From contig JACPPM010000200.1 of assembly GCA_016191015.1 (NCBI GenBank), positions 21,954 to 85,953 of the forward strand: a stretch of 64,000 bases of DNA, read 5' to 3'. Each line of letters opens with the position of its first letter. Position 1 is the first letter of the stretch. Positions 6,972 through 55,757 of this stretch are shown piece by piece. Under the pieces are notes generated by a model that ran no database searches, was not told where the DNA came from, and worked only from the letters and a program-made list of their open reading frames with translations. The position numbers and the translations under genes are program-made. The stretch is from Acidobacteriota bacterium (lineage in GTDB: Bacteria; Acidobacteriota; CAIWXX01).

Positions 6972-6974
6972 CGA

Positions 6975-7056
6975 GTTCAAAGTTCCAAGTTCAAAGTTCC
7001 AAGACCAACGAGTGGCGCGTTCGGGATTCTTGAACTTTGAACTTTAAACTTTGAAC
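6975..7056. terminator. Long AT-rich hairpin between convergent yjbQ and maeB (candidate bidirectional terminator)
   Basis: Left arm gttcaaagttccaagttcaaagttccaag (6975-7003) pairs imperfectly with right arm cttgaactttgaactttaaactttgaac (7029-7056). Each arm also contains a tandem repeat of its own. Confidence 0.5.
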
Positions 7057-30624: not shown

Positions 30625-30701
30625 GCGCCCGTAGCTCAGTTGGATAGAGCGACTGACTACGAATCAGTAGGTCGGGGGTTCGAGCCCCTCCGGGCGCTCC
30701 A
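30625..30701 (+). tRNA. tRNA-Arg (anticodon ACG)
   Basis: Manual cloverleaf fold. Acceptor stem GCGCCCG/CGGGCGC, D-arm GCTC..GAGC, anticodon stem ACTGA/TCAGT with loop CTACGAA, T-loop TTCGAGC, 3' CCA. Confidence 0.9.
30653..30701 (+). repeat. attL: 49-bp direct repeat, the 3' half of tRNA-Arg
   Basis: ctgactacgaatcagtaggtcgggggttcgagcccctccgggcgctcca is repeated at 54382-54430 with 3 mismatches. Confidence 0.85.
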
Positions 30702-30747
30702 TTCCCCTCAATAACTTAGCGGTCTCAGCGGGACGGCGAGATTTCTC

Positions 30748-30768
30748 GGGTACCACCCGGGTACCACC
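30748..30768 (+). promoter_or_regulatory. Tandem GGGTACCACC arm-type repeat, left end of element
   Basis: gggtaccacc-c-gggtaccacc, 47 bp inside attL. The same tandem sits near attR. A 15-bp palindrome tgacgcactgcgtca follows at 30789-30803. Confidence 0.6.
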
Positions 30769-31001: not shown

Positions 31002-31307
31002 ATGCGACGCGATACGCACGCTGCTACCCCGCACCGCAGGACTGAGCCGCGCGACGCGGACCGCCTCGTCTCGACGGCCGAAGCCGCCGCATACCTGGGT
31101 ATCAGCGCACAACACATGCGCGCCATGCGGTCCGCCGGCACAGGGCCCGAGTACCACCGGTACTGCGCCGTCGGGACCCGTGGCCGGGCGTATTATCGGT
31201 TGAGTGCCATCGAGTCATGGCTCGCGGCCAGGCGCCACCACTCGACGGCCGACGAGGAGGCCCTGGCGGCGCCCGCCCCACCCTCAAATAACTATCCGGA
31301 GGATTGA
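31002..31307 (+). CDS. Excisionase/AlpA-like HTH DNA-binding protein
   Basis: Signature LVSTAEAAAYLGISAQHMRAMRSAG. First gene inside attL, preceded by an AT-rich region. Confidence 0.6.
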   Translation: MRRDTHAATPHRRTEPRDADRLVSTAEAAAYLGISAQHMRAMRSAGTGPEYHRYCAVGTRGRAYYRLSAIESWLAARRHHSTADEEALAAPAPPSNNYPED

Positions 31308-31308
31308 G

Positions 31309-31407
31309 ATGCCGACACAGAGACACAGCGAGTACGTGCTGATCGGGGCACTCCCCGACGACCCCACCGACTACGACCACGAGACCGTGGATTGCTGGGA
31401 CCGATGA
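31309..31407 (+). CDS. Small ORF (32 aa), translationally coupled to the helicase gene
   Basis: GGAGG ribosome-binding site upstream. Its stop overlaps the next gene's start (ATGA). No homology was assessed. Confidence 0.35.
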   Translation: MPTQRHSEYVLIGALPDDPTDYDHETVDCWDR

Positions 31408-32294
31408 CCACGGACCCCCTCGATGGCAGCCTCGCGAGACGTGTCCCGATCTCGCTGCGGGCCCTCGTCGACGCGTCGCTGCCCCCACTCGATTACGTCT
31501 TGCCCGGTATGCTTGCTGGGACCGTTGGCGCACTGATCTCGCCGGGCGGCGTCGGGAAGAGCTGGTGGGCTCTCCAGGCGTCCGTCTATCTCGCCGGCGG
31601 CCCCGACATACTTGGACTGGACGATCCCAGAGCCCGGCAGCTTCGCCCGGGTCCCGTCGTCTATCTCGCAGCCGAAGACCCCGAGCTGCCCTTGCTGTAC
31701 CGTCTCCAGGCCCTCGCGCGGATGATGGACGATGCCACTCTCGACCGCGTGGATCGCAACCTCCACGTCATCCCGCTCCTTGGGGAATCGCTCGATGTGA
31801 TGACGCCACCTTATCGGCAGGCACTCACCCACTATGCGAAGGGCACGCGGCTCATTGTGATCGACACCCTCCGCCGCGCGCACACCCTCGACGAAAATTC
31901 GAGTGGCGACATGGCCCGTCTCCTGGCTGTCCTAGACCAGGTCGCCGTCACAAGCAACTCGGGTGTGCTCTATCTGCACCACACCACGAAGAGCGCGGCC
32001 CTGTCGGGCCAGGGCGACCTGCAGCAGGCCGCACGCGGATCGTCCGTCCTCGTCGACAACATTAGATGGCAGGCATACGTCTCGGGGATGTCCGAGGCAG
32101 AGGCCGACCGGTACGGGATCACCGACGAGGATCGACGGCTCTACGTCCGAGCCGGCGTAGCCAAGATCAACTACGGTGCTCCTCTACCTGAGCGGTGGTA
32201 CCGTCGTGATGAGAGAGGCATCCTGCGGCCAGCCGATCTCCGTCCGATAGCTACTCGGACGAGGAGGACGCGGCAGGAGGCCCTCTCCGTATGA
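31404..32294 (+). CDS. RecA-like AAA_25 ATPase (RepA-helicase-like replication protein)
   Basis: Walker A SPGGVGKSWWAL and Walker B LIVIDTL. Resembles phage/plasmid RepA-like helicases. Confidence 0.7.
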   Translation: MTTDPLDGSLARRVPISLRALVDASLPPLDYVLPGMLAGTVGALISPGGVGKSWWALQASVYLAGGPDILGLDDPRARQLRPGPVVYLAAEDPELPLLYRLQALARMMDDATLDRVDRNLHVIPLLGESLDVMTPPYRQALTHYAKGTRLIVIDTLRRAHTLDENSSGDMARLLAVLDQVAVTSNSGVLYLHHTTKSAALSGQGDLQQAARGSSVLVDNIRWQAYVSGMSEAEADRYGITDEDRRLYVRAGVAKINYGAPLPERWYRRDERGILRPADLRPIATRTRRTRQEALSV

Positions 32295-32298
32295 CGCG

Positions 32299-33423
32299 GT
32301 GCGGCACGGAGACGGGAGGCCAGACATGAGCGGACGCCCCACAACGCAAACCGATCACGCCCGGCACCACCCCGCGCACTGCATGGCGCCAGGGTTGTTT
32401 CGATCACTGAAGGGCCGGAGTCGCACGGACCGCCCCGCCCTCGACATCAGATACACCTGGGGCGACGCTGAGTACCACTTCCTTGGCGTGGCACTTGGGG
32501 TCGAGGACATGCGTGTCTTACAGGCGCTGACCGCGATCGCGGGTGTGCGCGGTCTACAGCTCCCGCACGAGTCGACTCGGCCGCGAGACCCGCACTGGGA
32601 GCGTCTGCGCCGCACACTCGAGGATACGCCTGCCGACGGCAGTCCGCGGGACCACCGCTCCGCTACCGCTGCGGCTCTCGTGACGAGTCGCTATCGTCTA
32701 GCGGTCGAGGCCGGCTGGGAACCGCACTCCGCCCGCCGCATGCACCTCCTGCTGGAGGCGCTGGAGCGCCTTGGCGCGATCTCGCTCTACGTCACGCACG
32801 GCGCCAAGATCACGGGTCCGTACCGGCTGCTCGCCTTTTTGCTTGATCGAGACACCGACAGACTGCTGATCGCTCTCAACCCGCACATCGCCGCCACAAT
32901 CCTCGGCACCATACCCAGCGTGGCCTATGTCTCGCTCGTCGAGGCACGCGCGCTCACAACCGACCCCAGCCGCCTGCTGCACCAGTGGCTATCCGCGTGG
33001 ATCGGACCCGGCCAAGCGCGCCTCATCTCTATCGACGCAATCTGCTCGCATATCTGGCCCGACAGGGCCACGGACCGGAAGCTACGTGATCGGCGTCTCA
33101 AGGCCCGGGCCAGTCTCGACGAGATCGCCGCACTACCGTACTGGCAGGTCACCCCCCTCCGTCCTGACACCTGGCGCATTTCGCGCCGACGGGGCCTCCC
33201 CTCCGTCGGGGTGTACCGACATCGTCGTTGGGGTGTACCGGCATCGACGTTGGGGTGTACCGGCATCGACGCCCCCCCAGATGCCCATCCGCATCACAGC
33301 CGCTACCAGCGCGGGTCCCAGCCACCAGCGTCACTACCGGACGAAACCGCTCTAGTAGATACTAGAGAGTATCTAGGGCGCGAGGCCCTGGATGACCTCG
33401 CGCCCTCTGGGCCATGGAGATGA
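32299..33423 (+). CDS. Putative replication initiator-like protein holding internal iterons
   Basis: No recognizable catalytic motif. Placed between helicase-like and primase-like genes, and its 3' end holds three 22-bp direct repeats. Confidence 0.4.
   Translation: MRHGDGRPDMSGRPTTQTDHARHHPAHCMAPGLFRSLKGRSRTDRPALDIRYTWGDAEYHFLGVALGVEDMRVLQALTAIAGVRGLQLPHESTRPRDPHWERLRRTLEDTPADGSPRDHRSATAAALVTSRYRLAVEAGWEPHSARRMHLLLEALERLGAISLYVTHGAKITGPYRLLAFLLDRDTDRLLIALNPHIAATILGTIPSVAYVSLVEARALTTDPSRLLHQWLSAWIGPGQARLISIDAICSHIWPDRATDRKLRDRRLKARASLDEIAALPYWQVTPLRPDTWRISRRRGLPSVGVYRHRRWGVPASTLGCTGIDAPPDAHPHHSRYQRGSQPPASLPDETALVDTREYLGREALDDLAPSGPWR
33208..33273 (+). repeat. Three tandem 22-bp iteron-like repeats (ggggtgtaccgRcatcgWcgYY)
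   Basis: Units at 33208-33229, 33230-33251 and 33252-33273. The 22-bp period is not a multiple of 3, so this is a DNA-level repeat. Followed by a C7 run. Confidence 0.7.
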
Positions 33424-34220
33424 GGCGTCAGCTCGCGTGGTACGACTCCGTGGGCGTGGACCGGTTCGATATCGCCGTCTCTCTGAGCGCCGACAACAGC
33501 GACGGCATGATCTGGCACCGCGACATCACCGCCGATCGAGTCATCGCGCTCAGACCCTTCGCCGCGGCGCGCAACGCCGCTGGCGCGAACATCTACGTCC
33601 GGCCGGCTCGTGGTCACGACTGGCCGGTTCTCCTGCTCGATGACATCACTCGCTCTTGGGCGGATCGGATCCAGCGCGCCCGCGCCTGCTGCCTGGTCGA
33701 GACCAGTGCCGCCAATCACCAGGCGTGGATCCACTGCGCTCGTTCCCTGGATGAGCCGGAGCGGTGCGCGTGCCAGCGCGCGATCGCAACCAAGATCGGT
33801 GCGGATATCGGCTCGGTCAGTGGGGAGCACCTCGGCCGCCTCGCAGGCTACCGGAACAACAAACCCGGGCGCGGAGGGCACTGGGTACGCATCCATGCGA
33901 TCGGCGCCGGCCCAGCGTGGGATCCGTCGCGCGTCCTCGCCGCTCAGAGTCCCGGCGATCTCCCGCAGCCGACTCCACCCCCAGGGGGGGCTGTGGTTCA
34001 CGGCGGCGGCGGACCGGATGAGAGCGCCGACGAGTGGGGCTATGTATGCGGCCGGCTGACGTGGCTACGCGACTCGCACGCCTCGGACTCACGCATCACG
34101 GCCGAGCTCGCGGCGATGTCGGCGCAGCTGGAGCGACGCGCGGTCGCACGCCACAAAGCAAAGCCGGCACAGTACGCGGCCCGCACCGTCGCCAACGCAC
34201 GCCGGAGGATCGGGGTGTGA
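33414..34220 (+). CDS. Putative primase/replication protein (RepB'-like)
   Basis: Motifs NIYVRPARGHDWPVLLLDDI and QAWIH. Start overlaps the upstream stop. Assignment is tentative. Confidence 0.4.
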   Translation: MEMRRQLAWYDSVGVDRFDIAVSLSADNSDGMIWHRDITADRVIALRPFAAARNAAGANIYVRPARGHDWPVLLLDDITRSWADRIQRARACCLVETSAANHQAWIHCARSLDEPERCACQRAIATKIGADIGSVSGEHLGRLAGYRNNKPGRGGHWVRIHAIGAGPAWDPSRVLAAQSPGDLPQPTPPPGGAVVHGGGGPDESADEWGYVCGRLTWLRDSHASDSRITAELAAMSAQLERRAVARHKAKPAQYAARTVANARRRIGV

Positions 34221-34287: not shown

Positions 34288-34500
34288 ATGGGATTCGAGT
34301 TCGAGGAAGAGACGAAGGAAACCACCAAAGCAATCAACGTCCGCGTGCCCCTGAGCCTATGCGCTGACTACGAGTCGGAGGCAACAGCTCGTAATACAAC
34401 TGTGAGCAATCTGATCGTCCAGGCGATGCGGTTTGCAATACGAGAGGCACAACGGCACAGACGACAGACTGCGAAGCCTGCGGCACACCGGGAGAGCTAA
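34288..34500 (+). CDS. Ribbon-helix-helix (CopG/Arc-like) DNA-binding protein
   Basis: About 70 aa with a beta-strand and two helices (KAINVRVPLSLCADYESEATARNTTVSNLIVQAMRFAI). GGAGGG ribosome-binding site upstream. Confidence 0.5.
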   Translation: MGFEFEEETKETTKAINVRVPLSLCADYESEATARNTTVSNLIVQAMRFAIREAQRHRRQTAKPAAHRES

Positions 34501-34687: not shown

Positions 34688-35221
34688 GTGTCCACAAACA
34701 AGACAGTGCGGCGTCACGAGGTCCGGGCGCGTCTCACGGACGAGGAGTACGGCGCGGTAGCGCATCTCGCGCAGGAGTCCGGGCTCTCGCAGGCGGATGT
34801 CTTGCGGAGGCTCGTCCTCACGCACTCAAAGCGAAAGTGGGAGCGCGCCGCAGCGGGCGAAATAGAGCAGATGACAACCGATGTTGAGGCGCTGAGCAAG
34901 CGCGTCGAAGCGCTCCACAGCAGGCTCGGCGGTGTGGAGCATGGACTCATGGCAGGCATCGAGACCTTGTCAAAGGACATCGTCATCGCGCGGAACGCCG
35001 CCCTCGAAGTCCAGGCGGCGCGCGGAGGAAGCGGCAAGACTGCCCAAGCAATCGAGGCCGGCATCCAGGATCTCTCCGCAGCGGTCCGGGAGCTGATACG
35101 CATTGACTCCCTGACCGCTCTCCGCGTCCAGGCGGTGGTCGATCTACACCCGAGTGAGACGGTCCGCCAGCGATTCGGGCAGTTGGTCGAGCAGGTCCGC
35201 GCCCAGGGAGGCGAAGTCTGA
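34688..35221 (+). CDS. mobC: MobC-family mobilization (relaxosome accessory) protein
   Basis: N-terminal RHH (VRARLTDEEYGAVAHLAQESGLSQADVLRRLV) followed by a helical C-terminus. GTG start. Confidence 0.65.
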   Translation: MSTNKTVRRHEVRARLTDEEYGAVAHLAQESGLSQADVLRRLVLTHSKRKWERAAAGEIEQMTTDVEALSKRVEALHSRLGGVEHGLMAGIETLSKDIVIARNAALEVQAARGGSGKTAQAIEAGIQDLSAAVRELIRIDSLTALRVQAVVDLHPSETVRQRFGQLVEQVRAQGGEV

Positions 35222-36570
35222 TGCCGATCGTTAAGGCCGGATTTTCGGCCGGCTTGCACGGCCGGGCATCGCCGGCATCCTGGGGTCGCCGCGTAGCATA
35301 TCTCGGCCGCGATCAGGATCAGGCCGCACTGCTCCTGGCGCGAGACGGCACGATCTCCAAGACCGGGGCGCTAGCAGAGCTGGGCGGTAAGCAGGCCGAG
35401 TATCACGAGGCGATCGTCGCGTGGACCCCAAATGAATGCCGCGCACTGGCCGAGCGATTCGGATCAGCCGAAGCGGCGAAGGAGGGGATCGCGAGGAGTA
35501 TCGCGCGCAACCTCGCGGGTGAAGACGGCCATTATGTCGTCGCGATCCACGCCAAACGCCTCAGCACCGGCGAGCAGGCGTGGCATCTCCACGTCGCCAT
35601 CCAGGGACGGGAGCCCGCGCAGTTTCTGGGCGCGAGAGGCCGGGCCCAGCGTGCCGTCGATGCCGCATGGCGCGAATGCGCCCCGAAGCTGCCGATCAAC
35701 GACTGGACCAAGCACGCCCAGTTTGTCTGCATTCGTGCGGAGCTTTGCGCTCTGCAGACCCAGCAGAATAAGCTCTCCGGCGAGCGACGCAACGCACTCC
35801 GGCGAGCGCGCGGGCCGGCAAAGCTCGAGGTCGACAAGGAGTATGCCAGCAAGATGCAGGCGCTTGTCGAGCGTCGCCATGCCCTCGAGCTTGCGGCCGC
35901 CCAAGCCCGGTACGATGCTCGCGGGATCGGCGGGGGCGCGGAGCACCTTGTGGAGATCGAGCGCGCCGACATGCGTCGAGCGCAGGCGCTCTCGGTCATC
36001 GAGCGCAGATCGGAGGCGGTCCGGGCGCGGGGTGGTGCACTGACCCGTACGGATCGCCTGTGGCGCTCCGCACGCGCACAGGACGCCGGCGTCGGCCGAG
36101 GTATCGCGGCCGCCCTACGGGGCGTCCAGCGCGCCCAGCGGGGCATATCTGCCGGGATATCAGGCATGGCCGCGTCGGCGGCGATGTCGGCTCTGCCTGC
36201 GCCCATGCGGGCGATGGTCACGCCATTCCGCCTGGCCGGCCGTCTGATGGCCACCACGACACAGCCGGCACAGCGGGACGTCGAGAGTCCGCTTGCGCCG
36301 CTCCGCGCGCTGCGCCCCGTCATGGCAGGACTACGGTGTGTCGTGCACCTGGGGTCCGCTGTGCTCGGGCCTGCTCTCGCGCCCGCCAAGATTCCAACGG
36401 AGGTCGTCAGCTCCCCACGCAGCGCGATCACCAATGCTGCCGAGCACGCCGCCGGAGCGGCCGTGGGAGTCGTCGGCGGACCCATAGCTGGTGGCGCTGC
36501 CAAGGCGCTGACCGCTGTTCTGCGGGTCCTGAGTTCCGCCCCCCAAGTCATCCAAGAAGTCGAGATATAA
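35221..36570 (+). CDS. Relaxase/mobilization nuclease
   Basis: Follows mobC with a TGATG overlap. His-rich motif HLHVAIQGRE plus an Ala-rich C-terminal tail. Family assignment is tentative. Confidence 0.55.
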   Translation: MPIVKAGFSAGLHGRASPASWGRRVAYLGRDQDQAALLLARDGTISKTGALAELGGKQAEYHEAIVAWTPNECRALAERFGSAEAAKEGIARSIARNLAGEDGHYVVAIHAKRLSTGEQAWHLHVAIQGREPAQFLGARGRAQRAVDAAWRECAPKLPINDWTKHAQFVCIRAELCALQTQQNKLSGERRNALRRARGPAKLEVDKEYASKMQALVERRHALELAAAQARYDARGIGGGAEHLVEIERADMRRAQALSVIERRSEAVRARGGALTRTDRLWRSARAQDAGVGRGIAAALRGVQRAQRGISAGISGMAASAAMSALPAPMRAMVTPFRLAGRLMATTTQPAQRDVESPLAPLRALRPVMAGLRCVVHLGSAVLGPALAPAKIPTEVVSSPRSAITNAAEHAAGAAVGVVGGPIAGGAAKALTAVLRVLSSAPQVIQEVEI

Positions 36571-36592: not shown

Positions 36593-37117
36593 ATGAGCAC
36601 CCATGACCCGAATCCACCCCAAGGGGGGGCTGTGGTTCATCCGCGCGACAACATGTCGCCCCCATCGCCTCAGGCACTGGCTGCAGAAGAGAGGCGTTTG
36701 CGTCGATGGATCGATCAATGGTACCGAGATCGCGCGCCCGGCCGGTGCGCCCGATACGGATCCCAGATGCTGGATCCGGTGTGGCTGGAGATCGAGGCCA
36801 CGGACTGGGGCTGGTGCTCAGTGCCTCTCATCTCCGTGGCGGAGTCATGGCGTAGGCACGGCCTCACGCGGCGTCTCCTCCAGTACCTGGAGTCGTTGCG
36901 AGGGATGCGGACGATCATGGTGAGGAATGTTCACTCTGACCATCTCCGAGAGGCTCTGGCGCGCTACGGTTACACAGATCTCGGCGGCGGCACGCACTGG
37001 CGGCGAGATTTGAGGTCGCCGGCGTCTTGGCTGCGTGGTCTCGCCATGCTCCGTTCTTGGTCGCGCCAGGTGTCATCGCCAGGACTCAGGGCAGGCGATG
37101 TTGCGCGGCGTGACTGA
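36593..37117 (+). CDS. Hypothetical protein (possible GNAT-like fold)
   Basis: AAGGAG ribosome-binding site. Weak motif-A-like RRHGLTRRLLQYL. Confidence 0.35.
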   Translation: MSTHDPNPPQGGAVVHPRDNMSPPSPQALAAEERRLRRWIDQWYRDRAPGRCARYGSQMLDPVWLEIEATDWGWCSVPLISVAESWRRHGLTRRLLQYLESLRGMRTIMVRNVHSDHLREALARYGYTDLGGGTHWRRDLRSPASWLRGLAMLRSWSRQVSSPGLRAGDVARRD

Positions 37118-44061: not shown

Positions 44062-45876
44062 ATGAGTGCTGGCGTTATGCTGGAGCAGGTGTGGCCATGG
44101 ATCGCGGCGTGGCCCTTCCGCCTCGTGGCTGCCGTCGTCGCGCGCAAGCCCGAGGTCCTCGCAGTGGTGCCGCACCTGCCAGCCGTTGCGCTGGCGTGCT
44201 GGGGACTCTGGTTGTGGGCTCGTCTCACGCGCAGGCAGCTACTCCATACGTGGCCGCGCCTCTCGAATTTCCTGGGCTCGGGATGGCTCGCGCCTATCGC
44301 GACATGGTTCACTGCGCTCACTCTGATGCTCATTCGCGGCACCTGGCTCGTGCGAGTCCTGCCAGGCCACGAGGTCGGTGCAGTATCGCACGCCGGCGCC
44401 CTCATGCTCTATCCGGCCGCGGCGTTCTGCGCATGGCGGATTCTGCCGCCGCTGGCGCGCAAGGGCAACCTCGGATCGGCCGTGTGGGCCGCGGTGAGGA
44501 ATGTTCGGGTGCGGTCCGGCGCTCCCTTCCTTCTGCCGGTGCGCATACCTCTTCGGCCGTGCAGAAGGCCCCGAGCGTGGGACATGGGACCCGCTGTGCT
44601 GGCACCTGACCGCGGCACCGTCTGCCGGCACACGCTGGTCCTTGGAGGGTCCGGAGCCGGAAAGGGTGCGTCGGTGCTCGGTCACATCATACAGAGCACG
44701 CACCTGCCGCTCATCTATCAGGACGTCAAGGCGGAGTGCCCGCTCCTTGTTGACCGGTGGCAGCGCCGCGGCAAGCCGCCGATTGTGTGGGGCGCGTCGC
44801 GTCCGGGCGGCTGGCCGTCGCTCAGCTGGAATCCTCTCCAGGAGGCATACGACGACCCAGATTTCGAGGATGCGTGCGGCGGGCTGGCAGGTGCGCTGCT
44901 ACCAGTGGTCAAGGGCGAGAACGCATGGGTCACCGACACGGCCCGTCTGCTCCTCACGCACATTTTTTCGCAACGCGTGTACAGAGCCCTCAGCGAGATT
45001 CGCGACGAGCTGAAGGGGCACGGAATCGCGGCGGTTCTCACGAGAGTCGGTTCGGCGGCTGGGCTCGACGAGCAGCTCGCCGGAAAGAACGCGAAAGAGT
45101 ACGCGTCGAACGCCCTCCAGACGACCCTTGATCACTTTGGGGTCGGGTGGGCGCGCGCCGCCACGACTCTGCACAACTTCAGTCTGTCAGATGTCCTGAC
45201 CACCGACTGCTACGTGCTATCGAATGAGTCCGATGAGAAGCGGCGTCTTCCCCTGCAGGTCTTCTGGCGGATGTTGTTCCGCAGAATGCTCAAGGCGTCC
45301 GAGCTGGGAAATATGCTATTGCTGGATGAGGGGCTCGCCGCAGGCTACATCCCGGGCTTGGCAGATGCGCTGAATACGATCCGCAGCAAGGGTGGTGCGA
45401 TCGTCTTCGCGATTCAGAATAGCGGGGGACTCAAGGCCGTCTACCGGGACGAGGCGGAGGCCGTGTCGGAGGCTTTCGCCTCAAAGATTGTCCTGCTCAG
45501 CGGGCTTAATCCGGAGGACCTCCAAGCACTCACGAAGCAGATGGGCGAGTTCACAGTGGTCCGCGGACGGCCGCTGCTCCCAGTCAAAGGTGAGCAGATT
45601 GCATCCTTGCTGCCGATCGAGTACGCGAGCAAGCTCGCGCTCCTCCCGAAGCAGTGGTGGGGCGTCATTCGAATCCCGGGTGTGGTGCGGACGGGCCGGC
45701 CCATCCTGGCGCGGATGATGGCGAGTAGTTTCGCCGTCCAGGAGCCGCACCCACACCTGGCGGAGGCGATGCAGCGGGCCTATCCCGCCCGACCATTCGC
45801 AGGCACAGCTGTGAATATCGTCCCGGAGGCTACTCCGGCCGAGCCAGACTCCACACCGCAGGCATTCGGACTATAG
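44062..45876 (+). CDS. Type IV secretion coupling protein (VirD4/TraG/TrwB-like)
   Basis: N-terminal TM helices. Walker A LVLGGSGAGKGASVL and Walker B MLLLDEG. Confidence 0.7.
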   Translation: MSAGVMLEQVWPWIAAWPFRLVAAVVARKPEVLAVVPHLPAVALACWGLWLWARLTRRQLLHTWPRLSNFLGSGWLAPIATWFTALTLMLIRGTWLVRVLPGHEVGAVSHAGALMLYPAAAFCAWRILPPLARKGNLGSAVWAAVRNVRVRSGAPFLLPVRIPLRPCRRPRAWDMGPAVLAPDRGTVCRHTLVLGGSGAGKGASVLGHIIQSTHLPLIYQDVKAECPLLVDRWQRRGKPPIVWGASRPGGWPSLSWNPLQEAYDDPDFEDACGGLAGALLPVVKGENAWVTDTARLLLTHIFSQRVYRALSEIRDELKGHGIAAVLTRVGSAAGLDEQLAGKNAKEYASNALQTTLDHFGVGWARAATTLHNFSLSDVLTTDCYVLSNESDEKRRLPLQVFWRMLFRRMLKASELGNMLLLDEGLAAGYIPGLADALNTIRSKGGAIVFAIQNSGGLKAVYRDEAEAVSEAFASKIVLLSGLNPEDLQALTKQMGEFTVVRGRPLLPVKGEQIASLLPIEYASKLALLPKQWWGVIRIPGVVRTGRPILARMMASSFAVQEPHPHLAEAMQRAYPARPFAGTAVNIVPEATPAEPDSTPQAFGL

Positions 45877-45886
45877 AGGAGGACAG

Positions 45887-46849
45887 ATGAGACAGAGAAT
45901 CGAAACACTGATCGTGCAATTGCGCCTTCGGGCAGGTTGGCGCGCACCGCTCGTTGTCGCTTGCGTATTGGCCGCTTGGATGTTTCTGCTGCCAACCACG
46001 GCTTATGCCCAGGAGACTATTGGCAGCAAGTTTATGGAGGACACGATGCGCAAAGCGCTCGTGCCCGTCGTCATGGCGTTCATGACCAAGGTCAGTAACT
46101 TCGTGACCCCATTGCTGGCGGGGTTGGCTACAATCTTCGTAATCTGGACCGCGATCAAGAACTTCCTCGCAGACAGGCCCTTCCAAGAGACCTTCGCAGA
46201 GATTCTGATGACACTGCTCATCGTCACGGCCCTCACGAACACGGACAACTACAGGTGGCTCTTCTGGGACATGATGTATGGTGGGCTCTACACGGAGCTT
46301 GTTGTCCCTGCCGGCGAAGGGGATACGGGCTTCCCGGCGGCTGTGCAAGAGCTGGCTCACCAGCAAGCGGAACGCTCCGCGAAGTGGAACCTCAGCACCG
46401 GCATGACGATCATCCAGCGCATCGGCGAATCCATCAACACACTCGAGACAGGAGGCGTTGCTTGGCTCATGCAAATCGGCGCACTCTTTGTCGAGCCCCT
46501 CATGACGTCCGCCACCATCTTTGCGATAATGTCGATCGCTTTCTTCGGGGCGATCGGCCAGATATTTCTCTCCATGTGGCTACTCGACTTCACGAAGGAC
46601 TATACGAAGAAGTGGTTCGGCTGCTATATGGGCGCGATATTCTCGTTGGTAGCAATCAGCTTCTTCGCGCCATTTCTGAGCGGGTGGTGGAGTGATGTTG
46701 TGGCCGAAGCGGTACAACTCGAGAACGCGAACAAGGGCATCACGGAAAAAATGCTTACTCCTGGCCTCATGAAGCAGTTCGTGTGGAGTTTCTTCGGCAT
46801 CATGGCAGCCCTCAAGGCGCCCAGTTTGGGGAAGGAGCTGTTCCGGTGA
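45887..46849 (+). CDS. Polytopic membrane protein (VirB6/TrbL-like candidate)
   Basis: GAGGAGG ribosome-binding site. At least five hydrophobic helices. This region is visibly AT-richer than the rest. Confidence 0.45.
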   Translation: MRQRIETLIVQLRLRAGWRAPLVVACVLAAWMFLLPTTAYAQETIGSKFMEDTMRKALVPVVMAFMTKVSNFVTPLLAGLATIFVIWTAIKNFLADRPFQETFAEILMTLLIVTALTNTDNYRWLFWDMMYGGLYTELVVPAGEGDTGFPAAVQELAHQQAERSAKWNLSTGMTIIQRIGESINTLETGGVAWLMQIGALFVEPLMTSATIFAIMSIAFFGAIGQIFLSMWLLDFTKDYTKKWFGCYMGAIFSLVAISFFAPFLSGWWSDVVAEAVQLENANKGITEKMLTPGLMKQFVWSFFGIMAALKAPSLGKELFR

Positions 46850-47796: not shown

Positions 47797-48093
47797 TCGC
47801 CGCCATGCCCCGGTGCGAAGACGGAGTGCCGGCAGTCACGACGAGTCCTTCGCCGTCGCTCGCCTGGGCCCGCTCTCACGCCCCGCGTCTCGGGCACGCT
47901 TCGCTCTCCGGCTCCGTTGCAGACGGGTCCCCTCCCGCCTTCGGCGGGAACCCTCCCCATCTTCACTCCGCCTCCGGCCTGAGAAGCGGGGACGCGGGCC
48001 TTTAGGGCGAGGCGACGGCGAAGGACTCATCGTGAGACAGGCGGCGGCAGACAATACACAGTAATGCGTGTATTGCCGCCAAAGCCGCACGAG

Positions 48094-48120
48094 GCGCCGG
48101 CTCAGGATCTATCGTGAGAC
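48094..48120 (+). repeat. Element-internal repeat family B, partial copy (…caggatctatcgtgagac)
   Basis: Matches the 3' part of the copies at 48967-49034 and 50277-50335. Confidence 0.55.
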
Positions 48121-48135
48121 AACCGTAAGAACTCC

Positions 48136-48966: not shown

Positions 48967-49034
48967 CCCCTATCCCCCGCCCGGGGTAACGCGGAACGGA
49001 GGCTCGGGCGCCGGCGCAGGATCTATGGTGAGAC
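48967..49034 (+). repeat. Element-internal repeat family B, full copy 1
   Basis: cccctatcccccgcccggggtaacgcggaacggaggctcgggcgccggcgcaggatctatggtgagac. Confidence 0.6.
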
Positions 49035-49063
49035 GGGGGAACGGAACAGCCGGCGAATGAAGT

Positions 49064-49315
49064 TTATAGTTGGCGCTCCTTTAGGTACTGCGCAAGTGCC
49101 TCGATCACAATATCGACCATTTCGCGTCGGGTGCTCGCTGCGGCCACCTTCAGGCGATAGTGGAGCTCTTCCGGCAAATTGAACGTAGCCTTTTTCATCG
49201 CCGCTTTTCCGAATGGCGACTGCGCCTCTATACGCTGTATAGCTGTAGCCTGTATGCCTGTATGTCCAGCCTGCCTTTGTCCGGTGACTCCTGCCAATCC
49301 TACGCGCTTAGACAT
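49064..49315 (-). CDS. RHH/ParG-like partition DNA-binding protein
   Basis: C-terminal RHH (KKATFNLPEELHYRLKVAAASTRREMVDIVIEALAQYL). Lies immediately downstream of parA on the same strand. The start could instead be the internal ATG at 49198. Confidence 0.5.
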   Translation of the reverse strand: MSKRVGLAGVTGQRQAGHTGIQATAIQRIEAQSPFGKAAMKKATFNLPEELHYRLKVAAASTRREMVDIVIEALAQYLKERQL

Positions 49316-49953
49316 TTTCTCAACTCCTTTACGAGTAGTCGCAATTCCTTGGTCGCCGCTGAGTGTGGCGCAAGACCGGAAACGGTCCGCCCCGCGACAG
49401 ATGCCTCTGCTAGGGCCACCCGTTGTGCTATTTCGGCACGGCAGACAGGCAGTCCGATGCTTCTGGCAGCTTCGCGAGCCTCATCGCCGATTGCCGTGCC
49501 GACGATCCGCCGGCTGATCACGATGTAAGCACGCAACCCCGCATTGCTGCTCCGGGCGCGTGCGATCATCTCCGCCATCCCTTCGCCGCTCCACAGGTCG
49601 AACGCAGACGGCTGGATCGGAACAAGAACGAGATCCGCGACAGCCAGGGCCGACCGCGTAATGCTCTCGGCGCCCGCTGGTCCCCCAGGGGGGCAGTCAA
49701 TCAGGATCATGTCGTACTTGTGGCGGAGTTTGGGCACCTCAGCATGGAGGATTGGCGCCGGCATAGCGACGACATGGAAAGGGATTGAACCCTCCGATCG
49801 AACGCCACGCCAGCGAACAACGGATCCCTGCGGATCGGCGTCAACGAGAAGTGCCTCAAGCCCTTCTTCCCCCAGGATCCCAGCCAATCCGAGCGCGATC
49901 GTGGTCTTGCCACATCCGCCCTTCTGGTTGGCAATCACAATAACGTGACCCAT
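49300..49953 (-). CDS. parA: ParA/ParF-family partition ATPase
   Basis: Deviant Walker A NQKGGCGKTT. ParA motifs VDADPQGS and ILIDCPP. 217 aa, small plasmid-type. Confidence 0.85.
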   Translation of the reverse strand: MGHVIVIANQKGGCGKTTIALGLAGILGEEGLEALLVDADPQGSVVRWRGVRSEGSIPFHVVAMPAPILHAEVPKLRHKYDMILIDCPPGGPAGAESITRSALAVADLVLVPIQPSAFDLWSGEGMAEMIARARSSNAGLRAYIVISRRIVGTAIGDEAREAARSIGLPVCRAEIAQRVALAEASVAGRTVSGLAPHSAATKELRLLVKELRKCLSA

Positions 49954-50276: not shown

Positions 50277-50335
50277 CCTATCCCCCGAAGGGGGTAACGC
50301 GGACGGAGGCTCCGGCTCAGGATCTATCGTGAGAC
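50277..50335 (+). repeat. Element-internal repeat family B, full copy 2
   Basis: cctatcccccgaagggggtaacgcggacggaggctccggctcaggatctatcgtgagac. Confidence 0.6.
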
Positions 50336-50600
50336 ACGATCGATCGATCGACATAGCCCCGGCCGCGGGATCGGAAAGGAGTTGACTTTTGACCCCACAA
50401 GTGCCAACCTTCGCCTATGGGTACCCGTAGGGCAGACAGGACCGCGTTAGATCTGCGCGAAGCACTCGGCGCGTCGCAAGAGACATCGGATTTCTCCACC
50501 GCCTCGGGCCGGAAACGAATCAAGGCGAGGTCGTTGTGGAGTTCGATGGGCGGTTTTACCGCATTACGAAATTCGATTCAGCGTGAATTAGGAGGATCTC

Positions 50601-50978: not shown

Positions 50979-51325
50979 AGAGAGAAGCCGGAAGGACGCT
51001 CTCCGGGAAAAGCAACCTGAAGAAGAACGCCAGAGGAACTACGATCGCTAGACCGTTGACGGCGAAGCAGCGGCGGGAGGTTGCGGCGCTCGCTCAGCGA
51101 CCCGACGGCGAGATCGACTACTCCGACATTCCACCGCTCGAAGACAAGTTCTGGAGGGACGCCGTCCGGAATCCTTTTTATCGTCCGGTCAAGCGACAGC
51201 TCACCGTGCGGTTGGACGTGGATGTGCTCGTGTGGCTGCGCAGCCAGGGCAGGGGATACCAGACGAGAATCAACGCCCTGCTGCGTGAGGAGATGCTCAA
51301 GAGGATGGGCAAGAAAACAGCGTAG
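50957..51325 (+). CDS. BrnA/DUF4415-family antitoxin-like protein
   Basis: Family motif DYSDIPPLEDKFWRDAV...LDVDVL.WLRSQGRGYQTRINALLR. Start codon uncertain (possibly TTG). Confidence 0.5.
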   Translation: MARGRDIEREAGRTLSGKSNLKKNARGTTIARPLTAKQRREVAALAQRPDGEIDYSDIPPLEDKFWRDAVRNPFYRPVKRQLTVRLDVDVLVWLRSQGRGYQTRINALLREEMLKRMGKKTA

Positions 51326-51404
51326 CAAATCCCCCCAGACCCCCCTCCTAATACTAATATGCGCTGTCTCCGCAGCGCATCTATCTGATGCGGCTCAGAG
51401 TGAT

Positions 51405-51442
51405 GTTACCTGGGAGGTAACATTTGTTACCTCCCAGGTAAC
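51405..51442. other. Perfect 17-bp-stem hairpin (gttacctgggaggtaac-attt-gttacctcccaggtaac)
   Basis: Inverted repeat read directly. Lies between the brnA-like gene and brnT. Confidence 0.6.
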
Positions 51443-51480
51443 ATCCCTTCTCCTCGTGCCCGTCCTGCCATCCGGGCCAC

Positions 51481-51545
51481 GGTGAACCACTGCCCCCCCC
51501 CTGGGGGTGGAGTCGGCGGCAGAGAGCTTCCGGGATTCCTGCCGT
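51481..51545. repeat. Element-internal repeat family C, copy 1, with a C9 homopolymer
   Basis: gtgaaccactgccccccccctgggggtggag...gagagcttccgggattcctg. Related to 52225-52290, and the core recurs at 33970 and 36620. Confidence 0.6.
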
Positions 51546-51619
51546 GGGACGGTGGCGCTAAGAAGGAGCCCTCGCGCACAGCCCTGCAATTGTAGCTACA
51601 GAAGGAGTTATAATGGTTC

Positions 51620-51903
51620 GTGAGGTTCGCGTGGGATGAAACTAAGAATACGGAGAACATTCGGAACCACGGCTTCGACTTTGCCGATGTGTGGGAGCTC
51701 TTCGAAAATGCACTCCTCGTGGACCTGGATACTCGCGAGATTATGGCGAGGACCGGTGGATAGGGATCGGACTGCTCAAGAGTGTGGCGGTCGTGGCCGT
51801 CGTCGTGTTTGCCGAGAGAGGACCGGAAACCGTGCGAGTCATCTCGCTCACGAAGGCAACGAAGCATGAAAAAGAAAGATACGAAAACGCCGTCAAGGAC
51901 TGA
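51620..51903 (+). pseudogene. brnT: brnT (DUF497 RNase toxin) disrupted by a -1 frameshift
   Basis: The N-terminal part (VRFAWDETKNTENIRNHGFDF...) stops at 51748. The C-terminal part (DYGEDRWIGIGLLKSVAVVAVVVFAERGPETVRVISLTKAT) continues in the -1 frame. Confidence 0.6.
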
Positions 51904-52141
51904 CTGGAAGCGAGTCAAGGCCATGTCCGATCCTGAGATTGATTGCTCCGATGTCCCTGAGCTCGGCGAGGATTTCTTTGCGCGAGCGGTTCTCTGGCCC
52001 GGGCCCAAGAAGCAAATCACTCTACGGCTTGACCCTGACGTCTTGGATTTCTTCAAGCACCAGGGCCGTGGCTATCAACGGAACATCAACACCGTGCTGC
52101 GGCGATACGTCGAGCTCCAAAGGCAGCGACACGCCAGCTAA
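51866..52141 (+). CDS. brnA: BrnA antitoxin
   Basis: MKKKDTKTPSRTDWKRVKAMSDPEID...ITLRLDPDVLDFFKHQGRGYQRNINTVLRRYV. Overlaps the 3' end of brnT. Confidence 0.7.
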   Translation: MKKKDTKTPSRTDWKRVKAMSDPEIDCSDVPELGEDFFARAVLWPGPKKQITLRLDPDVLDFFKHQGRGYQRNINTVLRRYVELQRQRHAS

Positions 52142-52224
52142 AGCCGATTCCTCACAAACGATGGCACGCCCCAGCGTGCCATCGCCTCACCTCGTGACTT
52201 TCTCGGTGGGGCCGGAATGGATGT

Positions 52225-52290
52225 GAACCACAGCCCCCCCCTGAGGGTGGAGGGGGCTGCGGAGAGCTTCCGGGATTCCTGGAGTGGGGC
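52225..52290. repeat. Element-internal repeat family C, copy 2, with a C8 homopolymer
   Basis: gtgaaccacagccccccccctgagggtggagggggctgcggagagcttccgggattcctgg. Confidence 0.6.
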
Positions 52291-52691: not shown

Positions 52692-53050
52692 TACAAGCGG
52701 CCCTCAGCCTTCATGCGAGCAAGGAATGGAGATTCGCCTTCTCGCGCGCGAAGATCCTCCACGCGTCGGACCTGGGCACCGATTTCTACATCCATCTCAG
52801 GCTTGTGATCGTAGTAGTACGAGAGCGCGGCATGAATCTGCGCCAGGCTGATCTGCCGATAGTGCTGAATGAAGATCTCCTCGGGGCTCCATCCGTGGGC
52901 GAGGTGATCGAGCGCGATCTCCACAACTTTGCAGGAGGTTCCCTCGATCGTGGCTCGTCCCTCCGCGTCGAGCCGGATATGTGGAACTGACGTGACAGCT
53001 TTGGACAACTTGCTTTCCTCCTCCCTCGAATATACTACGTGCTCTCTCAT
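52691..53050 (-). CDS. DUF433-family putative antitoxin
   Basis: DUF433-like region IRLDAEGRATIEGTSCKVVEIALDHLAHGWSPEEIFIQHYRQISLAQIHAALSYY. Confidence 0.55.
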   Translation of the reverse strand: MREHVVYSREEESKLSKAVTSVPHIRLDAEGRATIEGTSCKVVEIALDHLAHGWSPEEIFIQHYRQISLAQIHAALSYYYDHKPEMDVEIGAQVRRVEDLRAREGESPFLARMKAEGRL

Positions 53051-54204
53051 CCAGCTTTGCTGATCGGCACAATTTTCTCGGTCGTTCGTCTCTCAACGGC
53101 CTCGCGCCGTTCCTTGATATCCATCGGAGAGTAATGCAGCTCCGCAATCCGGACGTCGGTCCGCAGCACGCGTGCCGCCATAAGCAACCCAGCTTGCTGC
53201 GTGATGTCACGGCCGAAGGTTCTCCGGAGGTCGTGGATGTTAACATTCGGGATGTGTGCTGTCGTCCGGATCCAGTTCCAGTGGTTCTTCAAGTCTTGTC
53301 TCCCGCGATCCGGATCTTGACCGGGAAACACGAAAAGAGAACGCCTGGGTACTTGCCTGAGCTTCCCGATCGTATACGCCGGGAGTGGGACTTCCTGGGA
53401 TTTGCCGGCCTTTGTTTGCGGAAGTGTCCAGATTGCTCGCTCGAAGTTGATGTCATCCCACTTCGCCCTCAGTACTTCGCTCTTGCGAGCTCCCGTCGTC
53501 ACAAGCATGAGGAACGCGGTGCGTACGAAGGGTTCGGGAATTTGCTCGATCGCGATGAGGACGCGCTCGAGCTCCTCTTCAGTCAACGCCCGCTTGCGAG
53601 GGGGCGGCTCGGGGTACCGACGGACCTTTCTCGCCCGATTCTCCATGATCAAGCTGCGCCTCCATGCCTCTTGCAGGCATCCGCTCACACTGGCCAGAAA
53701 CCTGTTGGCCGCGGCGTTGTGACCTTCAGCAGCCAGCCTCGCTGCCGGCTTCTCGATGTCTTCCACGCTCACTTGGTCGAGTCTCTTCTCTCCGAATTCT
53801 GCCGATGCCTTGCGGAGATAATTACGGTCCTCTGATGGCCTTTTCTTCCGCAAAGCTATTCGCTCGAGGTACTCGGTGATCCATTCGCGCATCAGGGGTA
53901 TCGCCTGACGGCGTTGCTTATCAGCGAGAGGGTCGCCGCCCTTGATCACGCACGCGAGCTTTTCGATCGCCATCTGACGTGCGGCTTCAACCGTGAGGGG
54001 ACCGTAAAGACCGAGAGTGATTCTGCGCCTCGTCTTGCGACCGCCGTACCGCAGCACGAATGCCTTACGACCACGCGGAGCCTCCTTGCTCCCGGGATAG
54101 GCAACGACACCGAGACCGGGGATCTCGTTGTCCCAGACGTAAGCACGATCGCCCGCGTTTGTCTCGAGAGAGTCAATCAGGCGCTTAGTGAGTCGACCTT
54201 TCAT
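53047..54204 (-). CDS. int: Tyrosine-type site-specific integrase (P4-like)
   Basis: N-terminal arm-binding domain (LTKRLIDSL...AYVWDNEIPGLGVVAYPGS), a core-binding domain, and a C-terminal catalytic domain with a conserved H..R...Y region. Confidence 0.9.
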   Translation of the reverse strand: MKGRLTKRLIDSLETNAGDRAYVWDNEIPGLGVVAYPGSKEAPRGRKAFVLRYGGRKTRRRITLGLYGPLTVEAARQMAIEKLACVIKGGDPLADKQRRQAIPLMREWITEYLERIALRKKRPSEDRNYLRKASAEFGEKRLDQVSVEDIEKPAARLAAEGHNAAANRFLASVSGCLQEAWRRSLIMENRARKVRRYPEPPPRKRALTEEELERVLIAIEQIPEPFVRTAFLMLVTTGARKSEVLRAKWDDINFERAIWTLPQTKAGKSQEVPLPAYTIGKLRQVPRRSLFVFPGQDPDRGRQDLKNHWNWIRTTAHIPNVNIHDLRRTFGRDITQQAGLLMAARVLRTDVRIAELHYSPMDIKERREAVERRTTEKIVPISKAG

Positions 54205-54245
54205 CCTACTCCTCCTGTGTCAGTGCGCTGGTCAGTAGGTTGCTC

Positions 54246-54266
54246 GGGTACCACCAGGGTACCACG
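54246..54266 (+). promoter_or_regulatory. Tandem GGGTACCACC arm-type repeat, right end of element
   Basis: gggtaccacc-a-gggtaccacg, in the same orientation as the left-end copy at 30748-30768. Confidence 0.6.
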
Positions 54267-54381
54267 CACTCATAGTAACCCGCCGACACCAGAATACGCT
54301 TCACACGACTAAGTGTAACATAACTATGAATGTCGTCAACACCCAAATACGCCCGGCAACGTATAAAACGTTTACAGCCTA

Positions 54382-54430
54382 CTGACTACGAATCAGTAGG
54401 TCGGGAGTTCGAGCCTCTCCGGGCGCGCCA
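54382..54430 (+). repeat. attR: partial tRNA-Arg 3' half
   Basis: ctgactacgaatcagtaggtcgggagttcgagcctctccgggcgcgcca, with 3 mismatches to the intact tRNA. Confidence 0.85.
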
Positions 54431-54564
54431 TGTTTTCAATATTTTGCGAGAGATCGACCGGTTCGATGCTTCGGCTGGCGACCGCCGGGCAACCAGTGGG
54501 GTGGCAACGGCCACGGATGGCGCGCTTCACCAGCTCTCGCGACGCGATCTCCTCGCACACAATG

Positions 54565-54836
54565 GGTAGGTCCCGCCCCGGCAGCGGGAGACTGCGGCCC
54601 TCGCCCAGAGACCCGACAGCGACATCGACTATTCCGACATTCCCCCGCTCGAAGGCAAATTCTGGAGGACCGCCGCCCGAAATCATTTTTACCGCCCGAT
54701 CAAATGACAGCTCACCGTACGGTCGGACGCGGATGTGCACGTGTGGCCGCGCAGCCAGGATGGGGGTAACAGACCGGTATCAACGCCCTGCCGCCTGAGG
54801 AGATGCTCAAGAGCATGGGCAAGAAGACAGCATAGC
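54565..54836 (+). pseudogene. Decayed brnA-like (DUF4415) antitoxin copy
   Basis: About 85% nucleotide identity to 51040-51325. Contains an in-frame TGA and an indel. Lies outside attR. Confidence 0.6.
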
Positions 54837-54890
54837 GAGGACTCGAAATCCCCCCACAGCCCCCGTTGGGGTCGAGTCCGTCGCGCGCGT

Positions 54891-55526
54891 CTATGATCGT
54901 GCGGCCTGTGCCACCAATTGATCGAATCTGGCGATCAATCTCTTCGGAGCGTGCTTGAGCAAGTAGTCACGAACGCGCTGCGCGTCGATCCCTACGAGGA
55001 TAAGCTGCGACACATCCCGGTGATCATCCGGCCGGGGCGATTTGAGTTTCAGATAGACCACAACCTCAACGGGGGCCACCGCGATGCCCTCGCTACTGGG
55101 CGCGCTGGCGAACGCTTCCGCGAGGTGCTCTTCGCCCGGTCCGATCGAGAGATAGTCGATCGGCACGTCACCGACCATGAGGGGCACCTCCGGGTGCATC
55201 GTCACGACGCCGCCCTCGTGCTTGATGAATGCTTCCTCGCCCACAAGGTAGTCGACGTCTTTCGTCGTCCGGGGGTGACCGTAAGCTCCAACCGCCATCC
55301 CCCCGACGAGAATGTGTCGCACCCCGGCCTTCTTGAGCAGCTCGTTGGAAGTTCTGGCAGCGTTGACTATGCGCGGCGCGACCAGGTCGAAGACTCGGTT
55401 GAGGTCAACCTCGGCATCCTCGGTTGGCGGATTGATCTGGATCCGAGCAGAAGGGCCAGACGCGTCGGTATCGTCGGGGGGCTCTCCGCCGGGATCTTGC
55501 GGAGCTCCGAATCGTATGCTGGGCAT
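54891..55526 (-). CDS. Hypothetical nucleotidyltransferase-fold protein
   Basis: GG.A...G..R.T.D.D-like motif (LVGGMAVGAYGHPRTTKDVDYLV). Confidence 0.4.
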   Translation of the reverse strand: MPSIRFGAPQDPGGEPPDDTDASGPSARIQINPPTEDAEVDLNRVFDLVAPRIVNAARTSNELLKKAGVRHILVGGMAVGAYGHPRTTKDVDYLVGEEAFIKHEGGVVTMHPEVPLMVGDVPIDYLSIGPGEEHLAEAFASAPSSEGIAVAPVEVVVYLKLKSPRPDDHRDVSQLILVGIDAQRVRDYLLKHAPKRLIARFDQLVAQAARS

Positions 55527-55566
55527 GCTCTCACTTTACCACCAATCCAGCTCGCTGATCGGCGCG

Positions 55567-55757
55567 ATCTTCACTGTCGTGCGTTTCTCTGCCGCCTTGG
55601 GCGGTCCTCTGGCCTGGCCCAAAGAAGCAGATCACCTTGCGACTTGACCCCGACGTCTTGAAGTTCTTCGAGCGCCGGGGCCGTGGCTATCAACGGAACA
55701 TCAATACAGTGCTCAGGCGGTACGTCGAGCTCCAAGAGCACCGATGCGCCGGCTGAG
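55567..55757 (+). pseudogene. 5'-truncated brnA remnant
   Basis: About 88% identical to the 3' part of brnA at 51960-52141. Encodes ...PKKQITLRLDPDVLKFFERRGRGYQRNINTVLRRYVELQE. Confidence 0.6.

Follow-up and report, generated by a model that had tools for sequence, protein, structure and literature searches.

We analysed a stretch of 64,000 nucleotides (the window) from contig JACPPM010000200.1 of an Acidobacteriota bacterium, and the part of it from 31.0 to 34.2 kb is very probably a replication module of the IncQ family (RSF1010-type), carried on an element of ~23.7 kb that is integrated at the 3' end of a tRNA-Arg(ACG) gene. Judged by their sequences, three consecutive genes of the module are orthologues of the RSF1010 replication proteins RepA, RepC and RepB', and an array of 22-bp direct repeats, which we take to be the iterons of an IncQ-type oriV, follows closely on the conserved core of repC. 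This assignment is based on the homology of the three proteins, the catalytic residues of the primase, the iteron array itself, and the position and flanks of that array, which are conserved in the RepC family. The features of the module are as follows.

31404..32294, plus strand: repA, RSF1010-type hexameric replicative helicase (PF13481 AAA_25, E 2.9e-30)
32326..33186, plus strand: conserved core of repC (amino acids 1-287), predicted iteron-binding initiator (PF06504 RepC, E 1.4e-52)
33187..33423, plus strand: putative run-on tail of the repC open reading frame (ORF), 78 codons and a TGA stop, spanning the whole iteron-proximal origin
33204..33271, plus strand: three 22-bp direct repeats, candidate iterons of oriV (Tandem Repeats Finder)
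33272..33348, plus strand: G+C-rich spacer starting with a C7 run (70% GC in its first 40 nt; aligns with the G+C-rich spacer of IncQ oriV)
33349..33376, plus strand: A+T-rich segment with overlapping palindromes (CTCTAGTA/TACTAGAG and TAGATACT/AGTATCTA)
33375..33406, no strand assigned: GC hairpin with a perfect 11-bp stem (AGGGCGCGAGG N10 CCTCGCGCCCT)
33414..34220, plus strand: repB, stand-alone RepB'-type primase (PF16793 RepB_primase, E 1.2e-14; start annotated by NCBI at 33420)

Predicted RepA, RepC and RepB' proteins

An earlier note on this DNA, made from the sequence alone, had picked out three consecutive genes, with the motifs GGVGKSW and NIYVRP, and both the motifs and the ORFs are present (31404-32294, 32326 or GTG 32299 to 33423, and 33414/33420-34220, all on the plus strand). 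The profile hidden Markov model searches that it proposed were positive for all three proteins (AAA_25, RepC and RepB_primase). It had rightly read the first protein as a RecA-like AAA_25 ATPase, and this protein also aligns over its full length with RSF1010 RepA (PDB 1G8Y, E 3.3e-80; 47% identity by BLASTP), with the Walker A motif GGVGKS (GGVGKSW in translation).

The middle protein, which had been called unannotatable, is a clear RepC, the PF06504 match spanning amino acids 17-296 of the GTG-started ORF. Its core is ~39% identical to IncQ-1 RepC and nothing above 40% identity was returned by the RepC protein search; the alignment with homologues stops at an invariant arginine, R287. An AlphaFold (AF2) model built on 10 homologues was confident for residues 6-291 (predicted template modelling score, pTM, 0.75), and the nearest solved folds to its core were RepE54 and related iteron-bound Rep initiators, and RctB (Foldseek E ~1e-5, probability 1.00), and so the core is predicted to have a RepE-type dual winged-helix fold. 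The logic of helicase, initiator and primase that the earlier note had recognised from IncQ plasmids is thus right, with the middle protein as the initiator, as is its remark that the gene order differs from that of RSF1010.

The NIYVRP protein, suggested as a possible primase, matches the RSF1010 RepB' catalytic domain (PDB 3H20/3H25, E ~1e-17, 1.3e-17) in addition to RepB_primase, and is 33% identical to the RSF1010 MobA/RepB fusion. Residues of RepB' that are required for priming have been established (PMC8567376), and when these are mapped on the alignment Y62, D77, D78, D134 and R145 are kept while W50 is replaced by F. The C-terminus gave no match to Pfam RepB_primase_C; stand-alone RepB homologues (n>100) align over 96-100% of the length, including the C-terminus. 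Of four contexts examined for stand-alone homologues of this primase (36-44% identical), three have an IS110-family transposase gene immediately 5' of the primase gene and in the same orientation (L089 278-2252; L090 4913-6816; L091 4849-6864).

Iterons and origin anatomy

The earlier note had reported three 22-bp repeats in the 3' end of the middle gene followed by a C7 run, and both are found, the array at 33204-33271 (period 22, 3.1 copies, 93% matches) and the C7 run at 33272-33278; with a score of 115 this array ranks first among those of the 64-kb window. The second and third copies have exactly the same sequence (CGTTGGGGTGTACCGGCATCGA), to which the first is 86% identical. An 18-nt core of the repeat occurs at only these three places in the window at ≤3 mismatches, compared to 0.08 expected in shuffles. 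The repeats lie at codons ~293-315 of the 365 in the middle ORF (counted from ATG 32326), and the array begins 18 nt after the last conserved RepC codon, R287.

RepC loci were gathered from metagenome contigs, IncQ plasmids and 80 species-representative genomes, and nearly all of those with a nearby array have a 22-bp unit in 2.5-4.5 copies starting 0-32 nt after the R287 codon. The exceptions are RSF1010-like replicons, where inserted genes lie between repC and oriV. The layout in the window matches that of IncQ plasmids (pCHE-A), GIsul2-type elements and small IncQ-like contigs, ~70 other RepC loci having been checked. Each locus has its own unit sequence, as sites specific to their initiator should, and because the unit of the window is without significant sequence similarity to the rest of the family, its assignment as an iteron rests on period, copy number, position and context. 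The repeats would be the RepC binding sites of an IncQ-type oriV, and the earlier suggestion that they are a feature at the level of DNA, and a candidate origin, agrees with their lying at the iteron position of IncQ plasmids and ~70 RepC loci and with the same anatomy downstream.

That anatomy, in the family, consists of an A+T-rich, internally palindromic block ~45-57 nt past the array and then a GC hairpin at ~+85 to +105. The A+T-rich segment of the window is the most AT-rich 30-mer 3' of the iterons (60% AT, where the locus as a whole has 66% GC) and aligns with the conserved IncQ block AAATCCATCCATGATTATCTAAGATAATCCACTAGGCGCGG, which makes it a candidate DNA-unwinding site. The conserved 15-bp IncQ block CCACTAGGCGCGG has only CTAGGGCGCGAGG as its counterpart here, and this aligns with CTAGGCGCGG of the family. 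The GC hairpin, 8-14 nt upstream of the repB start, has a DNA fold of -15.2 and -15.8 kcal/mol on the two strands (z -3.8 and -4.8). G+C-rich and A+T-rich segments, the 15-bp block and palindromes after the iterons are known components of the IncQ oriV (PMC7557826), and the order and spacing of the segments and palindromes found here are comparable to it. No DnaA box was found near the origin.

The repC reading frame runs through the origin

The repC frame stays open until the TGA at 33421-33423, and the ORF consequently has a tail of 78 residues past R287 that is matched by no homologue in the alignment; the homologues are all 280-305 amino acids (aa) long and cover only ~76% of the query. 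In the repC frame the tail has a G+C content at third codon positions (GC3) of 0.615, compared to 0.76-0.81 in repA, the repC core, repB and the neighbouring genes, and in the AlphaFold model residues 292-365 have a predicted local distance difference test score (pLDDT) of 30-43 and no secondary structure. As the tail is unshared, without a coding GC3 signature and predicted to be disordered, the evidence points to an ORF run-on rather than to coding constraint. The statement of the earlier note that the repeats sit inside a coding region thus holds literally for the ORF, while the tail that contains them does not look like maintained coding sequence.

The position of the repC stop relative to the nearest tandem repeat was located in each RepC locus collected. 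It lies directly before the array in pCHE-A, where the iterons begin at the nucleotide after the stop, and in L092; it lies 9-70 nt into the array in L001, L002, L005, L009 and the GIsul2-type loci (33 nt), and past the array in L066, L084 and L087, whose ORFs end in the A+T-rich block. The repC of the window is the extreme of the family, with its tail of 78 aa compared to 1-47 aa elsewhere. With one more C in the C7 run (C8), the TAG at 33353-33355 would terminate RepC, as in several relatives; the alternative (C8) frame has a GC3 of 0.77 over 26 codons, which are too few to decide. Across the RepC family, then, the iterons start no more than about 30 nt from the last conserved codon, and repC ORFs as annotated, those of GIsul2 included, often enter or cross them, and because of this the C-terminal "extensions" of RepC proteins are to be read as origin DNA and not as protein domains.

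In the GIsul2-type locus on plasmid R485 (L095, NC_016036.1, 8496-9377) the annotated repC ORF overlaps the first 1.5 iterons, the array starting 33 nt before the stop. About 45 species-representative genomes, which belong to many genera of Pseudomonadota, have an identical GIsul2-type RepC locus (including 44 of the GTDB loci between L017 and L070).

The likeness to phage lambda that the earlier note drew stands in so far as the ORF of the initiator itself contains direct repeats for initiator binding, and an A+T-rich region. In lambda, the ori repeats in gene O encode part of a functional protein, between its two domains, whereas the iterons here come after the last conserved RepC residue, in an unshared tail that is predicted to be disordered and has no coding signature, and so the comparison is superficial.

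It is possible, if doubtful, that the run-on tail is functional nonetheless, the origin being embedded in translated sequence. Ribosomes ending repC would then melt the GC hairpin and re-initiate at repB, tying synthesis of the primase to that of the initiator, and translation or transcription through the origin to origin use. The repC stop and the NCBI-annotated repB ATG at 33420 do overlap (ATGA), repB lacks a Shine-Dalgarno sequence and has the -15 kcal/mol hairpin just upstream, and ATGA or 1-nt overlaps also occur between orf32 and repA and between the NikA-like and 449-aa protein genes (all listed below). Because of this overlap, the missing Shine-Dalgarno sequence, the hairpin and the similar overlaps in the operon, translational coupling of repB to repC is a reasonable hypothesis. 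The four TAG triplets of the A+T-rich segment, moreover, all fall off the repC frame, which alone has no stops there (0, compared to 3 and 2), but the chance of the frame staying open is ~0.11 by dinucleotide shuffles, not significant alone, and the argument is post hoc. A functional tail also fits poorly with a GC3 that carries no coding signature and a sequence common to no homologue, and among the 10 contexts examined there was no relative with the order repC-oriV-repB in which its conservation could be compared.

Boundaries of the integrated element

The limits of the element are marked by the following features.

30625..30701, plus strand: tRNA-Arg(ACG) gene (ARAGORN, Rfam tRNA)
30652-30702, plus strand: attL, the 3' half of tRNA-Arg, one copy of the 51-nt direct repeat bounding the element
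30739..30767, plus strand: GGGTACCAC twice, just inside attL (direct-repeat family D12, 90% identity)
53047..54204, minus strand: tyrosine integrase with arm-DNA-binding domain (PF00589, E 5.4e-14; PF13356, E 2.8e-10)
54381..54431, plus strand: attR, displaced 3' half of tRNA-Arg (51-nt repeat, 94% identical to attL)

A second GGGTACCAC doublet lies just inside attR (54237-54265), and the doublets at the two ends may be arm-type sites of the integrase. The tRNA-Arg gene, the 51-nt repeats, the GGGTACCAC doublets and the tyrosine integrase together indicate that the replication module belongs to an integrated element of ~23.7 kb.

Proposed replication of the element and alternative explanations

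In the scheme that we propose, the integrase would excise the element, after which RepC would bind the three 22-bp iterons at 33204-33271, the A+T-rich palindromic segment at 33349-33376 would open, and the RepA hexameric helicase would be loaded and unwind the DNA; the stand-alone RepB' would prime synthesis on the exposed single strands and the circle would be copied without host initiation factors, presumably by strand displacement. We infer the binding of RepC, the melting, the mode of replication and the activity of the module from its likeness to known replicons, and it is plausible on sequence grounds that the element replicates once excised.

Several observations weigh against a working IncQ-type replicon. 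RSF1010 requires two 40-nt inverted ssi sites for priming by RepB' (PMC8567376), and no large inverted repeat resembling ssiA/ssiB was found near the origin; the ssi and nic sequences of RSF1010 are absent, its oriT nick sequence TAAGTGCGCCCT having no match at ≤2 mismatches. The iteron of the window, compared with 16 other units of the family, gave a best cyclic match of 13/22, barely above the null, and the spacer between iterons and A+T-rich segment is longer than in relatives (~77 compared to ~45 nt). A sigma-70 scan of 30.6-35.3 kb found no sigma-70-like promoter. The source is a metagenome-assembled genome (MAG) and the module is seen in a single copy. Finally, the 78-aa tail could impair the initiator or reflect a stop codon lost in a decaying element.

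This last point leads to the idea that an integrative element captured an IncQ-like replicon which is now non-functional and decaying, with the lost repC stop as one symptom. We think this unlikely. The extreme tail, the lack of recognisable ssi sites and the long spacer would all fit with decay, as would the finding that close relatives of RepA, RepC or the origin were absent from 5.8 billion proteins. However, the three ORFs are full length and keep their catalytic or Walker motifs, two of the three iterons are identical, the three genes have the GC3 (0.76-0.81) of coding sequence that is being maintained, and the att sites, integrase and transfer genes are intact.

The element does contain one family of inverted repeats, a 27-nt motif with the consensus TCCACCCC(C/A/G)AGGGGGGGCTGTGGTTCA, whose four copies, two per strand, are found only inside the integrated element.

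33974..34000, plus strand: 27-nt motif copy 1 (TCCACCCCCAGGGGGGGCTGTGGTTCA), in the repB linker
36613..36639, plus strand: 27-nt motif copy 2, in codons 7-15 of orf174
51483..51511, minus strand: 27-nt motif copy 3, inverted
52224..52251, minus strand: 27-nt motif copy 4, inverted

It is the sole inverted-repeat family in the element, at 0.7 kb and 4.7 kb from the iterons, and it had no match in two scans of public metagenomes. A run of G and then GTG make part of it similar to the 3' half of ssiA, and its dyad, CC(C/A)CAG-G6-CTGTGG, looks like a recombinase core site. A related contig (L094), which starts inside repB, is 88% identical to the window over a block whose two ends coincide with successive plus-strand copies of the motif (copies at 4-29 and 2644-2669 of L094), and outside this block the similarity collapses. 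Folding of the four copies gave a non-significant z for three of them, but RSF1010 ssiA itself has a z of -0.5 and so this test is non-discriminating. The motif could be a priming (ssi) site, a recombination hotspot, or both. Two bolder readings, which we hold to be unlikely, are that the origin is purposely embedded in a translated but unconstrained repC tail, coupling repB to repC and making origin occupancy and read-through of the operon mutually dependent, and that the 27-nt motif is a new type of dispersed initiation site for a RepB' primase; if the latter were true, strand displacement from such sites would be able to replicate an element of 24 kb.

The main role of the three rep genes might instead lie in conjugation, where the primase and helicase would convert the single strands that arrive in a recipient, rather than in vegetative replication of the excised circle. 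In RSF1010/R1162 primase and relaxase form one fused protein, and the primase is active in recipient cells; here repB adjoins mob-like genes, for a ribbon-helix-helix protein and a NikA-like protein, on an element which has a type IV coupling protein. RepC and iterons have no known role except in activation of an origin, though, and the full anatomy of iterons, A+T-rich segment and hairpin is retained, and so we consider a transfer role improbable.

That the 22-bp repeats are instead a tandem repeat of the middle protein, as their place inside an ORF might suggest, or a chance repeat, was rejected and is effectively refuted, the 22-nt period not being divisible by 3, arrays of this period and copy number recurring at the corresponding position of dozens of RepC loci, where the unit sequences are unrelated and the stop lies before, inside or after the array, and the chance expectation being ~0.

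Comparison with known systems

The module shares with the IncQ plasmids (RSF1010/R1162; pCHE-A, NC_012006.1) its RepA (47%), RepC (~39%) and RepB' catalytic domain (33%, with the active-site residues), as well as an oriV in which 22-bp iterons, three to four in number, lead into a G+C-rich spacer, then an A+T-rich segment and then a GC hairpin. It differs from them in being part of an integrated 23.7-kb element at tRNA-Arg with an integrase, where IncQ replicons are plasmids of 5-15 kb, in lacking a recognisable ssiA/ssiB, MobA or RSF1010 oriT nick sequence, in having a repC ORF that reads through the whole iteron-proximal origin, and in its host, labelled Acidobacteria by NCBI. Compared to RSF1010 in particular, the gene order is repA-repC-oriV-repB and not repB-repA-repC, and the primase is stand-alone and not fused to a relaxase, the neighbouring 449-aa protein being unrelated to MobA.

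A parallel in architecture is found in GIsul2 and related integrative mobilizable elements (IncP islands and PIMEs), which are likewise chromosomal elements bearing an integrase, with an AlpA-like gene followed by an IncQ-type repA-repC and 22-bp iterons. GIsul2 was recognised as the widespread identical RepC locus mentioned above from its gene content on plasmid R485 and its description in PMC5704250, where integrative mobilizable elements with RepA and RepC are listed. It also has a TrbL/VirB6-like gene, the arrangement alpA-repA-repC-iterons ... trbL running parallel to that of the window. GIsul2 differs in being without a RepB primase, a type IV coupling protein or mob-like genes, in residing at the 3' end of guaA in Pseudomonadota, compared to tRNA-Arg in an Acidobacteria bacterium MAG, and in having its integrase at the opposite end, and its RepC is only 37% identical. 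A related class of integrative mobilizable elements has been shown experimentally to excise and replicate, and was called exclusive to Pseudomonadota (preprint 10.64898/2026.01.12.698999).

The module is of a kind already known, an IncQ-type replicon on an integrative mobilizable element, with no new mechanism; it stands out by its host phylum, by the position of its stand-alone primase 3' of the origin, and by a repC ORF that continues across the origin and into repB. It provides an example of a complete RepA/RepC/RepB' IncQ system, as predicted from sequence, from the genome of an Acidobacteria bacterium, where it resides on an element that is integrated at a tRNA gene and encodes a coupling protein of its own; this lends support to the idea that replication after excision is a property of many integrative elements. 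Vectors for Acidobacteria, a phylum that is hard to manipulate, could be developed from such a G+C-rich IncQ-type replicon.

Other genes and repeats of the element

The remaining genes annotated on the element are listed here.

31002..31307, plus strand: AlpA/excisionase-like HTH_17 protein, first gene of the rep operon (PF12728, E 3.8e-9)
31309..31407, plus strand: orf32, 32-codon ORF with a GGAGGA Shine-Dalgarno sequence (read from the sequence)
34288..34500, plus strand: ribbon-helix-helix protein (PF07878 RHH_5, E 0.001, below the curated cut-off)
34688..35221, plus strand: NikA/MbpA-like relaxosome accessory protein (PF21983 NikA-like, E 7.3e-5, below the curated cut-off; NCBIfam MbpA, E 0.003)
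35221..36570, plus strand: 449-aa orphan protein, a candidate in the relaxase position (by position only)
orf174: codons 7-15 hold copy 2 of the 27-nt motif (36613-36639)
44062..45876, plus strand: type IV coupling protein, VirD4/TraG-like (PF02534, PF12696, PF10412)
45887..46849, plus strand: TrbL/VirB6-like protein (PF04610, E 1.3e-12)
49300-49953: ParA

The order 3' of repB is thus ribbon-helix-helix protein, NikA/MbpA-like protein and 449-aa orphan, then cargo genes, the VirD4-type coupling protein, the TrbL/VirB6-like protein and ParA; no TrbJ or TrbK was found in the ORFs that were scanned. Upstream of repA, orf32 begins 1 nt after the stop of the alpA-like gene and its own stop overlaps the repA start (ATGA); it is reminiscent of the small genes upstream of repA in RSF1010. 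An Rfam search returned tRNA only. In the public NCBI record, for a contig of 124.8 kb from an Acidobacteria bacterium MAG, the label "hypothetical protein" is given to RepC, to RepB and to the 449-aa protein.

The 449-aa protein had no match in Pfam, NCBIfam, PHROGs or PDB sequences, nor by BLASTP to two MobA/relaxase-primase fusions, and a single-sequence AF2 model of it was poor (pLDDT 61) and returned no match from Foldseek; its assignment as a relaxase is accordingly backed by no database match. Its sole relative is P0132 on contig L094 (L094 1250-2452), in which the N-terminal 270 aa are ~92% identical and the C-terminus looks frame-shifted from the alignment. The protein has an HLH (HUH-like) triplet on a predicted beta-strand and a tyrosine at residue 27.

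Outside attR, the stretch at 54581-55754 repeats ~0.45 kb of the interior of the element (51070-52139) as three segments whose order is unchanged (80-84% identity), suggesting that a second, related island lay in tandem with this one at the tRNA site and has left a remnant. The ParA gene is flanked by a family of 31-nt repeats (GAGGCGCCGGCTCAGGATCTATCGTGAGACA), with direct copies at 48009-48039, 48091-48121, 49005-49035 and 50306-50336 and an inverted copy at 47836-47859, and these repeats may be centromere or operator sites. A near-perfect palindrome with 24-nt arms (AGTGATGTTACCTGGGAGGTAACA / TGTTACCTCCCAGGTAACATCCCT) lies at 51399-51448, beside small antitoxin-like ORFs. Far from the module, the window has facing heptamer arrays, AGTTCAA x4.3 (6974-7003) and its complement TTGAACT x4.1 (7030-7058), which lie 27 nt apart.

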